A DNA stretch of 64,000 bases. Origin: Candidatus Dormiibacterota bacterium. Lineage in GTDB: Bacteria; Vulcanimicrobiota; Vulcanimicrobiia; Vulcanimicrobiales; SCRA01. Of the stretch, positions 13,227 to 43,975 are shown piece by piece. Position numbers and translations under genes: made by a program. The stretch is taken from NCBI GenBank assembly GCA_035533275.1, contig DATLUD010000034.1, forward strand, positions 28,067 to 92,066, in the 5' to 3' direction. The notes beneath the pieces were generated by a model. That model saw only the letters and a list, made by a program, of their open reading frames with translations. It made no database searches and had not been told where the DNA came from. Numbering within the stretch: position 1 is the first letter of the stretch; the number at the start of each line of letters is the position of its first letter.

Positions 13227-14144
13227 ATGCGACTGAGGACATACGAAGCCACGGAAGCCGCCGGCGCCGCGCCGCAACTCGGCATGGAGCGCAACGGCCG
13301 CATCGTTCCCCTGCACGGGGTGAGCGACGTTGCCGCCTTCTTCTCGCTGCCGGCCGAGACGCGGACGCGGCTCGCGCGCGATGCGGAGACCGCGCTCGCC
13401 AAGGACCTGGGTGCGCCGGCGGCAAGCGTGAAGACGCTGCTTCCGGTGCTCGACCCGCGCAAGGTGATCTGCGTGGGGCTGAATTACCGCGACCACGCCG
13501 CCGAACAGAACCTCGAGATCCCCAAGGCGCCGGCGCTCTTCCCGAAGTACGCGTCGTCGCTGGTGGCGCACGGAGAGCCGATCGAGCTGCCCCGCGAGAG
13601 CGCGAAGGTGGACTACGAGGCGGAGCTGGTGCTGGTCATCGGCAGCCGCGCCGACCACGTCTCGCTCGACGACGCGTGGAGCGTGGTCGGCGGCCTCACC
13701 ATCGGCAACGACGTCTCCGTTCGCGACTACCAGGGCGCCACCACGCAGTGGATGAACGGCAAGATCTTCGACCGCACCACGCCCGTGGGCCCCGTGGTCG
13801 TCACGCCGGACGAGTTCCCCGACCCCGCGGACCTCGAGATCTGGCTCGAGATCGGCGGCGAAGTGCTGCAGCGCTCGCGCACCTCGCAGTTCGTCTTCGA
13901 CGTTCCGCAGATGATCGAGTACGTGACGCGCATGACGACGCTCGAGCCCGGCGACCTCATCTTCACGGGAACGCCGGGAGGCGTCGGCTTCCTGCGCAAG
14001 CCCAGGCGCTACCTCCAAGACGGTGAGACGGTCACCGTCTACGTCGAGGGGATCGGCACGCTCGTCAATCCCGTCAAGGCTCCGGAAGGCGGCGCCGCTC
14101 CCGATCTCCTGCCCAAGCCGCGCCGCGAGGAGCGGACTGCCTGA
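13227..14144 (+). CDS. fumarylacetoacetate hydrolase (FAH) family protein
   Basis: Start at MRLRTYEA, after GGCGAGGA. Has KVICVGLNYRDHA, DYEAELVLVIG and GDLIFTGTPGGVG. Confidence 0.85.
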   Translation: MRLRTYEATEAAGAAPQLGMERNGRIVPLHGVSDVAAFFSLPAETRTRLARDAETALAKDLGAPAASVKTLLPVLDPRKVICVGLNYRDHAAEQNLEIPKAPALFPKYASSLVAHGEPIELPRESAKVDYEAELVLVIGSRADHVSLDDAWSVVGGLTIGNDVSVRDYQGATTQWMNGKIFDRTTPVGPVVVTPDEFPDPADLEIWLEIGGEVLQRSRTSQFVFDVPQMIEYVTRMTTLEPGDLIFTGTPGGVGFLRKPRRYLQDGETVTVYVEGIGTLVNPVKAPEGGAAPDLLPKPRREERTA

Positions 14145-14180
14145 GCGTGGAGGGAGCCAAGCGGCTGGGGCATGCCTCTC

Positions 14181-14293
14181 GAGGGGCGCTCCGACATCGG
14201 CCCGTAGGCAGGATGCCGAGAGGGCCGATGCGGCGCGAACAGGAGGCCCACAGGATGTGGGCCGACGAGTGGCCCCGAGGGAGGCGTGCCCCG
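14181..14293 (+). repeat. structured intergenic repeat, copy A (possible ncRNA or REP-like element)
   Basis: Shares identical blocks with 42838-42952: gaggggcgctccgacatcggcccg, cgagagggccgatgcggcgcga, caggag, cgacgag and ggccccga. Hairpin 1 spans 14187-14237 with apical stem GGCA-gga-TGCC. Hairpin 2 is GCCCACA-gga-TGTGGGC at 14246-14262. The strand is nominal. Confidence 0.55.
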
Positions 14294-14306
14294 GCCGTTT
14301 GGCTAC

Positions 14307-15551
14307 TTAGACTCGTGCCGCGGGTCGCTTGAGCACGCCCTGCGCGATGCGCAGGAAGTCGTCCTCGTCGAGCAGGCCCTTGCGCTCGAGGGAGGTGGCC
14401 TTCACCTCTTCGAGGATCGCCATCATCTCGTCGTTGGTCGCCGGCCCGAGGCCGAGCTTGTCGAGCCAGATCAGGACCGAGTCCAGGCCGCTGCCCTTGC
14501 CGAGAACGATCTCCGGGGCCGACTGGCCGACCATCTCCGGCCGGAAGGGAAAGGCCTCGGTGAGGCGCTCCGTGCCGACGTTCTTCACCCATGTGGCGAT
14601 GATGCCCGACTCGACCTGGAAGAGGCGGTCGCCGACGATGCCGCGCTGCGGCGGAACCGCCACGCCCGAGAGGTCGCGCACGAGGTGCGAGAGGCCCGTG
14701 AGCTTGGTGTAATCGATGCCGGTGTCGAGCCCGAACATGGTCTTGAGGGTCATCACCGTGTCTTCGAGCGGGGTGTTGCCCGCCCGCTCGCCGATGCCCG
14801 TGACGGAGACCTGGACGACGCTCACCCCGTTGGCCACGGCCATCACCGTGTTGGCGACGCCGAGGCTGAAGTCCATGTGGAAGTGCGCCTCCATCGGCTT
14901 GTCGGGGATCCGCTCGCGCACCTTGCGGGCCATGTAGGCCGCGGCCGGCGGCGAGAGCACGCCGAAGGTGTCGACGAGCGCGATGGCGTCCATGTGCCCC
15001 TCGCGCGCGATCACCTCGATCATGTCGAGGAACGTGGTGATGTCGGCGCGCGTGGAGTCGATCGGGAAGAACGTGACGTAGAGCCCGTTCTCGTGCGCGA
15101 AGCGGGTCGACTCGATGGTCAGCTCCAGCGCCCGCTTGTACTCCCACTTGTAGGCGTACTCGATGATGTGCTCGCTCGACGGGATCTCCATCACGATCCC
15201 CTCGACGCCGGTGTCGAGCGCGCGCTTCACGTCGTCGACCATGCACCGCGAGAAGGCGAATATCTTGGAGGGCAGGCCAAGCTTCACGATGCGCTTGACG
15301 GCCTCCGTGTCCGACGGAGAGACGGCCGGGAGGCCGGCTTCGATCCGCTGGACGCCGGCCTCCGCCAGGCGCTCCGCGATGCGCACCTTCTCGTCGGCGG
15401 TGAACTCGACGCCGGCCTGCTGCTCGCCGTCGCGCAGCGTGACCTCGTGAACCTCAACCTTGGGGGGCGGCGCAAACGCCTGCGTGACCTCCGGTTGGTA
15501 GTTCCATGGACTGACGAAGTAGTCGTGTGTCTTCCAAGGCTGCTCAGCCAT
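14307..15551 (-). CDS. HMGL-like / DRE-TIM metallolyase (homocitrate / 2-isopropylmalate synthase family)
   Basis: Has VTLRDGEQ near the N-terminus, HFHMDFSLGVANT and GIGERAGNTPLE. 414 aa. Substrate not assignable. Confidence 0.8.
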   Translation of the reverse strand: MAEQPWKTHDYFVSPWNYQPEVTQAFAPPPKVEVHEVTLRDGEQQAGVEFTADEKVRIAERLAEAGVQRIEAGLPAVSPSDTEAVKRIVKLGLPSKIFAFSRCMVDDVKRALDTGVEGIVMEIPSSEHIIEYAYKWEYKRALELTIESTRFAHENGLYVTFFPIDSTRADITTFLDMIEVIAREGHMDAIALVDTFGVLSPPAAAYMARKVRERIPDKPMEAHFHMDFSLGVANTVMAVANGVSVVQVSVTGIGERAGNTPLEDTVMTLKTMFGLDTGIDYTKLTGLSHLVRDLSGVAVPPQRGIVGDRLFQVESGIIATWVKNVGTERLTEAFPFRPEMVGQSAPEIVLGKGSGLDSVLIWLDKLGLGPATNDEMMAILEEVKATSLERKGLLDEDDFLRIAQGVLKRPAARV

Positions 15552-42659: not shown

Positions 42660-42812
42660 CGTCGCGGCACCCACTTCTCCGATCGCGAGCTCGTGGATCT
42701 CACGCTCGCCATCGGGATGATCAACCTCTGGAACCGCTTCGGAGTCGGCTTCCGCCGCCAGCCCGATCCCAGCTATCGCACCACGTCACGCGCAACGACG
42801 CAGACGGCGTAG
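42660..42812 (+). pseudogene. C-terminal remnant of a carboxymuconolactone decarboxylase / AhpD-like gene
   Basis: Reads HFSDRELVDLTLAIGMINLWNRFGVGF, matching the terminal helix pair of the AhpD-like family (ELVELTxAIxxINxWNR). The upstream 30 codons of the 77-aa ORF are Arg/Pro/Cys junk. The remainder of the roughly 150-180 aa domain is missing. Confidence 0.45.
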
Positions 42813-42837
42813 GCGCGCTGGGCGGGGACGTCTCCGT

Positions 42838-42952
42838 GAGGGGCGCTCCGACATCGGCCCGGAGCCGTGGACGGCGAGAGGGCCGATGCGGCGCGAGCAG
42901 GAGCGGCACATGGACGTGCCGCGACGAGCGGCCCCGAAAGGGGACATCCCCG
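42838..42952 (+). repeat. structured intergenic repeat, copy B
   Basis: Same conserved blocks as copy A. Apical stem is GCCG-tgga-CGGC (42864-42875). Hairpin 2 is CGGCAC-atggac-GTGCCG (42904-42921). Terminal hairpin is GGGG-acat-CCCC (42940-42951). Confidence 0.55.
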
Positions 42953-42964
42953 TCCAGCGCGGCG

Positions 42965-43975
42965 TCAGGCGTTTTCGATGAAGATCTTCCGCGCCGTCCA
43001 GTAGAACAGATAGCCGAAGAAGCCGATGGCCACCGTGAGCCAGAGCAAGCTCATCACGCCGCTGGCCACCTGCTCGCTGCCGCCGCAGAGCGCGATGATC
43101 CCCGACATCAGCCAGAGGTTGAAGCGGCGCAACGGCGACGAGGAGAGTCCCGCCAGATTCCGAGCCGCGGCGAGCACGTCCTTGGGTGACCACGCATCCG
43201 TCTGGATCACCTGGGCGATGCGGCCGTCGGGCGCCACCAGCACCGTCACGTCGTTGTGAATGAAGTCGCCCGGACGGTCCTCGACGACCGAGAGGTTGAA
43301 GTCGTCGCCGACCGTCTTCACGGTCGAAGGCTCACCGGTAAGGAGCGACCAGCGGGAGGGATCGGCGTCGTATTTCTTGGCATACGCCGCGAGGACCGCG
43401 GGCGTGTCGTAGGTCGGGTCGATCGTGATCTCGATCAGATGGAACGGCCCGTTTCCGAATTGTCCCTGCAAGTAGTGGTACTTCGCGCTCACGGCAGGGC
43501 ACTCGTCGGCATCCTTGCAGCGCGTGTAGACGAAGCTTAGCACCAGCGTCTTGCCGAGGAAATCCTTGAAGTGCACCAGGCGGCCACGCTGGTCGACCAG
43601 CGGCACGTCCGGGAGCAAGTCGCCGACGCCGAGGATGCGCGAGACCTTCGTATTGGCCGACCCCGCGACGAAGGCGTCCGCGGGATGCACGTGACGCAAC
43701 GACCACGGCGTGGTCGACATGTCGAGGAAGGCGTCGATCGACTCTCCGGCGTGCAGCTTGGGCGGGTCGATCAGCCGGTACTCGATCGACTGGGCATTGA
43801 GCGTGCCGGCAACGGGATCGTTCCGCACGATCGCATCGCCGTTCGGCATGACCGCCAGCACCACGCCGTGGATCGGCACCAGCGGCACGGAACTCGTCGC
43901 CGACGCCGGCGCGGCCCAACAGAGGGCCGCGATCGACACGGCAAGCAGACCAAGGAAGCGGAGCCGGAACAGCAT
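42965..43975 (-). CDS. SCO1/SenC-family copper chaperone with N-terminal extra domain and C-terminal TM anchor
   Basis: Start at MLFRLRFLGLL (signal peptide). Thioredoxin-like core with LVLSFVYTRCKDADECP and FIHNDVTVLVAPDG. The hydrophobic C-terminal tail is LMSGIIALCGG...LLWLTVAIGFFGYLFYW. Confidence 0.75.
   Translation of the reverse strand: MLFRLRFLGLLAVSIAALCWAAPASATSSVPLVPIHGVVLAVMPNGDAIVRNDPVAGTLNAQSIEYRLIDPPKLHAGESIDAFLDMSTTPWSLRHVHPADAFVAGSANTKVSRILGVGDLLPDVPLVDQRGRLVHFKDFLGKTLVLSFVYTRCKDADECPAVSAKYHYLQGQFGNGPFHLIEITIDPTYDTPAVLAAYAKKYDADPSRWSLLTGEPSTVKTVGDDFNLSVVEDRPGDFIHNDVTVLVAPDGRIAQVIQTDAWSPKDVLAAARNLAGLSSSPLRRFNLWLMSGIIALCGGSEQVASGVMSLLWLTVAIGFFGYLFYWTARKIFIENA

Follow-up and report, generated by a model that had tools for sequence, protein, structure and literature searches.

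Two spacers of the window (the whole 64,000-nucleotide stretch of DNA analysed here) share long identical blocks of sequence that are not obviously part of any gene, and the question raised by this locus is what the shared sequence is and why its ability to fold persists where its stems have diverged. A preliminary description had taken it to be a structured element of ~113 nt, present in two copies (A and B below), whose hairpin stems differ only by compensatory substitutions. The comparison of the two copies held up in detail. The block GAGGGGCGCTCCGACATCGGCCCG is identical at 14181-14204 and 42838-42861, with 0 chance matches expected, as is CGAGAGGGCCGATGCGGCGCGA at 14217-14238 and 42875-42896, with 0.03 expected; CAGGAG, CGACGAG and GGCCCCGA are also the same in both copies. 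Both of the divergent sub-hairpins stay paired, with GGCA/TGCC in copy A against GCCG/CGGC in copy B and GCCCACA/TGTGGGC against CGGCAC/GTGCCG, and each has a 1-nt loop indel between the copies. However, the proposed length was too short, as an outer stem had been taken for flanking sequence and the real unit is ~148 nt.

With this stem included, copy A occupies 148 nt (14156..14303) and copy B 146 nt (42815..42960), both on the + strand, with covariance-model matches of 168 and 136 bits and predicted RNA folds of -109.3 kcal/mol (z = -10.3) and -107.4 kcal/mol (z = -8.7), respectively. For the - strand the corresponding RNA folds are -88.2 kcal/mol (copy A) and -95.7 kcal/mol (copy B), so that the + strand is better by 12-21 kcal/mol, and single-stranded DNA is predicted to fold on both strands (-59.5 / -51.8 kcal/mol for copy A and -54.0 / -50.6 kcal/mol for copy B). 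Copy A lies between the stop codon of a FAH-family gene on the + strand (14142-14144) and that of an HMGL-like gene on the - strand (14307-14309), whereas the neighbours of copy B are a + strand gene ending in TAG at 42810-42812 and a - strand ORF with its stop at 42965-42967, the name SCO1-like for the latter being a first-pass label given from sequence alone. The spacer left over amounts to 11 nt and 3 nt on the two sides of copy A and to 2 nt and 4 nt beside copy B, and the gap between the convergent genes is indeed nearly filled, as had been claimed.

The overall architecture consists of an outer stem (P1), a GA/GA internal loop, a 5-bp helix (P2) and a three-way junction that bears two arms: P3, a long hairpin whose internal loop is rich in purines and whose tip (P3b) varies, and P4, a short helix carrying a variable hairpin (P4b). 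In copy A (all features on the + strand) the 5' arm of P1, GCCAAGCGGCTGGGGCATGCCTCTC (14156..14180), folds with the 3' arm, GGGAGGCGTGCCCCGGCCGTTTGGC (14279..14303), which contains G.T pairs that exist solely on this strand; homologous, covarying arms are found at loci L007, L003, L009 and L002. The GA/GA loop (14181-14182 opposite 14277-14278) and P2 (GGGGC at 14183-14187 paired with GCCCC at 14272-14276) are invariant in 9/9 copies of what is called subfamily 1 below, and the GGGG/CCCC pairing of P2 is kept in subfamilies 2 and 3 too. P3 (14188..14236) has the lower stem GC.CCG.CATCGGCCC with GGGCCGATG.CGG.C.GC, then an internal loop, GTA / GAGA, and the apical stem-loop P3b at 14207-14217; the T at 14205, within CGTAGG, is found in copy A alone, most copies having G there. 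P4 (14239..14270) starts with the pairs A14239-T14270 and C14240-G14269 and continues through a G-GA-G / C-GA-C loop into P4b at 14245-14263. The corresponding parts of copy B, also on the + strand, are the P1 arms at 42815-42835 and 42940-42960 and the core at 42838-42937. P1 is 21-25 bp long and its sequence differs between the two copies while the pairing stays; the stem is followed by TACTTAG in copy A and by GGCGTCA in copy B.

Within the window a covariance-model search returned no third copy, in keeping with the two-copy description, but outside it the element proved to be a multi-copy family. When the two-block pattern was run against 185,579 species-representative genomes the only match was a chance one inside coding sequence (L001), whereas metagenome contigs yielded nine real loci, every one of them in a single set of soil samples. 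Six distinct full-length copies and both window copies fold identically. The covariance model added two diverged copies, designated subfamily 2, one in L012 and one in L013, each beside a copy already known, and in both places the subfamily-2 and subfamily-1 elements are arranged head-to-head with their 5' ends facing (L012:2377-2751, 70 nt apart; L013:1205-1537, 19 nt apart), an arrangement that, with two cases only, may be coincidence. Subfamily 3, made up of copies adjacent to mnmE, has the same architecture but does not keep the CAGGAG/CGACGAG motifs. There is also a truncated copy (L005:4807-4853 / L010:6634-6680), which consists of P3 alone, has the apical loop of the L003 copy and lies directly against a gene's 3' end; its locus was seen as well in a freshwater-sediment run (X6 loose ends). 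No further repeats of other kinds were found in the window.

The number of copies can be read from word depth in the soil DNA, which was 269-452 for the core against 10.7-14.7 for the flanks (67 contig pieces). At the L013 locus the subfamily-1 core reached 250-416, the flanks 9-15 and the subfamily-2 core just 24-41. These depths correspond to ~25-40 copies per genome equivalent, with one subfamily amplified ~25-40-fold and another low-copy. As to the host, proteins homologous to the HMGL-like and MnmG neighbours are listed under Candidatus Dormibacteraeota or Dormibacteraceae. For HMGL even the nearest relative is only 83% identical, indicating that the lineage is poorly sampled, and relatives at this level do not have the FAH/HMGL gene arrangement. 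Runs from wastewater, sediment, soil and aquifer contain close relatives of the window genome that also have multi-copy elements. Three other Dormibacterota genomes, sampled over ~60 kb of non-redundant sequence, showed no copy, and the pattern was not found in a plasmid collection, a viral contig collection or a literature sequence search. On this distribution the family is confined to one Dormibacterota lineage, that of an uncultured soil bacterium. One of the relatives, the wastewater strain X4, differs from the window at the two loci in other ways: its substitutions in the FAH-family gene are clustered at the C-terminal tail (window 14076-14099) and sparse in the rest of the gene, and its contig has ~373 extra bases at window 42667-42669, inside the gene that lies ahead of copy B or at the end of that gene, before it continues into the element.

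The element folds alike in every copy, and the pairing is kept through compensatory changes. In an alignment of 12 sequences fitted to the covariance model, which by its construction favours structure, 33/53 pairs were changed on both sides, compared with 16.5 +/- 2.3 in shuffles and 6-11 in slid controls, and no shuffle of 500 reached 33; in the same alignment 96.8% of cells formed a standard pair, compared with 79.9 +/- 1.0% in shuffles and 33-47% in slid controls. An independent MAFFT/RNAalifold analysis of nine copies gave 19 compensated pairs. Matched variants were also present in contigs of the soil DNA run, namely 14208 G>A with 14216 C>T (7 contigs each), 14210 A>G with 14214 T>C and 14248 C>G with 14260 G>C. 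Even the more constant helices change in step: the A14239-T14270 pair becomes G-C in 6/12 sequences, the stem ATCGGCCC/GGGCCGAT, invariant in subfamily 1, becomes GCCCGCGC/GCGCGGGC or GTCCGCGC/GCGCGGAC in subfamily 2, and the seemingly invariant CATCGGCCC/GGGCCGATG stem covaries in the diverged subfamilies. The excess of doubly changed pairs over shuffles bears out the earlier view that structure rather than stem sequence is conserved. By comparison, the unpaired junction residues of subfamily 1 are invariant and, on the + strand, purine-rich (the two GA/GA loops, GAGA and CAGGAG/CGACGAG), and G.U pairs outnumber A.C pairs by 18 to 7, which favours one strand, the +. This bias and the better RNA fold of the + strand (-109 against -88 kcal/mol) count against the mobile-repeat reading favoured below.

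That the similarity reflects chance, an assembly artefact or a coding repeat has next to no probability. For the long shared blocks zero matches are expected by chance, and independent assemblies (JGI, ENA and Logan) contain the same loci. Stop codons are nearly absent from all six frames of the element, but this gives no support to a coding repeat because it is expected at 72% G+C, and the register is lost between the conserved blocks; the argument that differences in loop length break every reading frame between blocks thus holds. Concatenated six-frame translations of both copies matched nothing, in any frame, among 5.8 billion proteins. A small peptide starting from the ATG in the P4b loop was considered and rejected, as neither its frame nor its sequence is conserved.

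Covariation of this strength might be taken as the mark of an RNA gene. No Rfam 15 family accounts for the element, as the preliminary description had supposed: nothing in the 64-kb window reached a gathering score, and each copy gave only noise at E<10, the best being MIR918 at 25 bits (threshold 268) and terC at 20.5 bits (threshold 39.9). Hammerhead and other ribozymes had no Rfam match when the filters were relaxed, a k-turn is excluded for P3 and P4 alike because neither shows the 3-nt-bulge-plus-GA pattern, and an integron attC site is excluded by the lack of a cassette array. A retron ncRNA, bridge RNA or omega RNA is unlikely, as there was no reverse transcriptase, IS110 or TnpB in the Pfam listings, which cover the called genes of loci outside the window returned by contig look-ups. 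Neither a sigma-70-like promoter nor a U-tract terminator-like site overlapped either copy, and the element sits just 2-11 nt from the stop codons on its sides. In three metatranscriptomes no RNA contig lay over any copy, even at 80% likeness, and the words of the element occurred in no RNA run searched, but the flanking genes themselves were covered only ~3x and RNA data this thin cannot exclude transcription. RNA contigs end at 14150 and at 14316/14326, on either side of copy A, but the ~3x coverage of the flanks has other gaps of 114-285 nt, and these ends cannot be read as those of transcripts. The check for a discrete transcript suggested by the preliminary description produced no covering contig, which is weak evidence both for reasons of coverage and because such a hairpin is hard to reverse-transcribe. 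We find no evidence that the element is a new RNA gene. The copies found beyond the window are still paired through compensatory changes, and this signature, which the preliminary description read as that of a selected RNA or DNA structure, is also known from mobile hairpin repeats.

Seven of the nine loci (7/9) lie between convergent genes, with the spacer usually filled, which corresponds to a binomial P of ~0.001 if 1/4 of spacers are assumed to be convergent. The two exceptions are the head-to-head pairs, found between divergent genes in L012 and between mnmE and mnmG in L013. Orientation relative to flanking transcription is inconsistent, and the convergent genes that flank an element have no other terminator-like site. 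Copies thus accumulate between convergent genes, and they can also be lost by deletion. Compared with L013, L030 has lost 121 nt of its subfamily-1 copy, a deletion that removes the 5' arm and the core but spares the 3' arm; the junction shows a 3-nt microhomology, the full allele coexists and an independent run has a contig (depth 6.4) with the same deletion joint. Because the 3' arm was left behind, this allele is evidence of a loss rather than an empty site. At window 14150-14326 and at the equivalent regions of L016 and L031, contigs from several assemblies (JGI, Logan) break off within the element or at its foot. As contigs of four assemblies break at it, the repeat is a practical cause of assembly breaks in the bins of this lineage.

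The ends of the element are less well defined than its centre. The P1 arms are homologous between copies and diverge outward, and conservation peaks at the central junction and decays from there, a pattern opposite to that of a classic terminal-inverted-repeat MITE and one that we count against a mobile repeat. In a long form of ~230 nt (L002, L003, L007 and L009) the hairpin extends outward to a second inverted repeat with the consensus GGGAATCTCCGATCTACGCC; this outer repeat, GGGAATCTCCGATC, is better conserved than the P1 arms but is present at 4/9 loci only and at neither window copy. Elsewhere in 490 kb GGGAATCTCCGATCTACGCC gave one weak and probably chance match (5 mismatches, L009 near 4562), with none in the window. 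At window 42960-42995, however, the last codons of the - strand gene beside copy B (...RKIFIENA) loosely resemble the long form's outer arm (GGAAGATCTTCATCG against GGAGATCTTCGGTC in L007). The 3' end of this gene may extend into what was once such an arm; the likeness is weak and failed the 5-mismatch search. TA precedes 4/6 outer-arm ends, usually within the TAG stop of the adjacent gene, but never on both sides of one copy. At the loci examined there was no direct repeat around the P1 ends, no unambiguous target-site duplication and no clean empty site. Nothing with matching ends that could be a cognate autonomous element or transposase was found in the 490 kb, and no transposase family appeared in the Pfam listings, which are those of called genes in loci outside the window and outside the pattern-scan set L002-L013. 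At L002:5895-6479 a gene for a 194-aa protein with an HNH motif converges on a long-form copy, and its TAG stop abuts the outer arm.

At one locus the element seems to have been retained for a long time. Four related genomes, with MnmG proteins 84-85% identical to that of L013, share the origin-proximal gene order dnaA ... mnmE-mnmG-rsmG-parAB, and in all four an element directly follows mnmE in the same orientation, which counts against a mobile repeat. Their 5' arms share GCTACGG(G), and for this reason the mnmE-proximal elements are taken to be positional orthologues. In a comparison of two of these, the outer stem has changed from GGGGTACCCGC/GCGGGTACCCC to GGGGTGTCCGC/GCGGACACCCC by compensatory double substitutions and P4b has gained a compensated insertion, whereas in one orthologue P3 has decayed. 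Such changes imply that pairing was kept after insertion, either by selection or by correction of one arm from the other. The second copy in the mnmE-mnmG spacer is present in some genomes and not in others, and L030 and L013 encode identical (100%) MnmG despite the deletion in L030. Persistence was also seen for copy B, which stays at its locus in related wastewater, sediment and aquifer strains (the two arms being read from contigs of different depth) and so speaks against mobility in the same way. A separate feature of this spacer is a TGnTACAAT motif, resembling an extended -10 element, that lies a few to ~15 nt upstream of the mnmG start in 5/5 related loci (L013:1540-1565; L030:9975-10003; L025:9990-10010; L026:9990-10010; L029:9975-10005); its position suggests that mnmG is transcribed with no leader or a very short one and that the repeat lies upstream of this promoter.

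Several features of the family recall REPINs. In the REPIN hairpins of Pseudomonas fluorescens SBW25 compensatory changes on the two sides are common (PMC3116915), and the likeness extends to their being extragenic, non-coding hairpin repeats of ~100 nt in tens to hundreds of copies, with a hairpin predicted in single-stranded DNA or RNA and with lineage-specific subfamilies. The asymmetric deletion in L030 also has a parallel in REPIN footprints, where deletion or excision spares a portion of one arm (PMC3116915), and REP sequences share the preference for convergent gene ends. However, REPINs, which are mobilised by RAYT, are made of two inverted REP palindromes of 20-40 nt headed GTAG or CGTC. 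The present element has no conserved head of this kind (GTAG/CTAC occurs in few copies and with the wrong polarity) and forms a single branched hairpin whose conserved part is a non-palindromic central three-way junction. Without a doublet of palindromes headed by GTAG or CGTC, it does not belong to the REP/REPIN family. A second comparison is with bcr1 of the Bacillus cereus group (~155 bp), in which a branched, cruciform-like RNA structure is reported to be kept by compensatory base-pair changes (PMC3184786); bcr1 is of similar size, dispersed and non-autonomous, and its genomic distribution is not conserved (PMC3184786). There is no sequence similarity between the two, and bcr1 is A+T-rich, flanked by 5-bp direct repeats and transcribed, whereas neither direct repeats nor a transcript were found here.

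Correia elements of Neisseria, ERIC of enterobacteria and RUP and SPRITE of pneumococcus are likewise 100-170 nt long with terminal inverted repeats that make one long hairpin. Correia elements are flanked by TA and are cut by RNase III when co-transcribed; here TA precedes 4/6 outer ends. In all four of these families the termini are best conserved, whereas here it is the central junction, with conservation fading outward, and the terminator-like U tract of SPRITE is absent. Intrinsic terminators, including the U-tract-poor hairpins of high-G+C bacteria, resemble the element as G+C-rich hairpins right after stop codons, but a stem of at least 25 bp with a 95-nt branched insert and no U tract, common in sequence to unrelated loci, is not what they consist of. 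Finally, the elements are small (148-230 nt), non-coding and multi-copy (core depth 25-40x flank), as MITEs are, yet with target duplication, empty site and transposase all missing they do not yet constitute a proven MITE.

We conclude, with a probability of about two in three, that the window copies belong to a new lineage-specific family of non-autonomous, hairpin-forming dispersed repeats, MITE- or REPIN-like in character, of uncultured Dormibacterota. The element would be copied in trans, now or recently, by a transposase encoded elsewhere, and the apex with its three-way junction and paired arms would be what this enzyme requires, probably on a folded single strand. If the enzyme needs the fold, the lineages that propagate would keep it while their stem sequence drifts. 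Insertions would survive mainly in 3' spacers, where they are harmless. Once transcribed from a neighbour, a hairpin of -90 to -110 kcal/mol might act secondarily as a barrier at the 3' end or as a target for a double-strand RNase, although such a role would not be the reason for the repetition. Covariation alone is insufficient to establish an RNA gene, because REPINs and bcr1 show the same signature.

The most serious competing explanation, which we consider unlikely but by no means negligible, is that the host selects a structured RNA, a module of 3' UTRs or intergenic spacers, present in many copies, whose folded transcript does the work (a bidirectional terminator without U tract, a stabiliser of mRNA 3' ends, an RNase III site or a protein-binding RNA, for example) and whose dispersal is incidental. 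The strength of the covariation, 33/53 pairs against 16.5 +/- 2.3 in shuffles, would fit such a role, as would the invariant purine-rich residues on one strand, the excess of G.U over A.C and the better folding of the + strand, and the filling of convergent 3' spacers that have no other terminator. The mnmE-proximal orthologues, which keep the fold by compensation across 84% MnmG identity, point the same way. On the other side, the mnmE-proximal copy is antisense to the sole gene that reads into it, CAGGAG/CGACGAG is not kept in subfamily 3, and a copy has been deleted in part of the population beside a 100% identical MnmG. A plain terminator would not need a three-way junction, and the failure of RNA contigs and runs to cover the copies, weak as it is at ~3x, is in the same direction. 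It is the centre-out conservation and the long retention at one locus that leave a host-selected structural role its minority chance. A related and rather doubtful proposal is that the fold and not mobility is selected, the element being a previously undescribed Dormibacterota module, a branched hairpin with no U tract that stays at its site over long times (as the mnmE-proximal copy has, with compensatory changes, across genomes 15% diverged in MnmG) and that acts at transcript 3' ends or in single-stranded DNA through a protein that reads the junction, or else that it is a new kind of hairpin-dependent mobile element recognised at the central junction.

Pairing might also be kept without any selection, through a process at the level of DNA such as intrastrand template switching or arm-to-arm repair in a long palindrome. 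The near-perfect palindrome of up to 230 nt, the folding of both DNA strands, the compensated indels in P4b and the fact that compensation runs along the whole outer stem, including its copy-specific outermost extensions, are all compatible with this. Such a process would nevertheless leave unexplained why a non-palindromic core is invariant in nine copies with widely differing stems, why G.T exceeds A.C and why short internal hairpins with loops of 3-6 nt covary, and we therefore think it improbable as the explanation.

To our knowledge, Dormibacterota have no cultured representatives, and their repeats, terminators and mobile DNA are undescribed. The dispersed repeat family favoured here is available as a defined alignment and structure model that can be run on any Dormibacterota bin, where it can serve as a lineage marker and as a flag for assembly breakpoints and can help to locate the enzyme that copies it. 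It also carries a caution for genome scans, in that compensatory substitutions in a repeated hairpin are not sufficient to call a new RNA gene. If the positional orthologues next to mnmE prove to be maintained by selection, they would provide a tractable case of a repeat that has been domesticated for a structural role.
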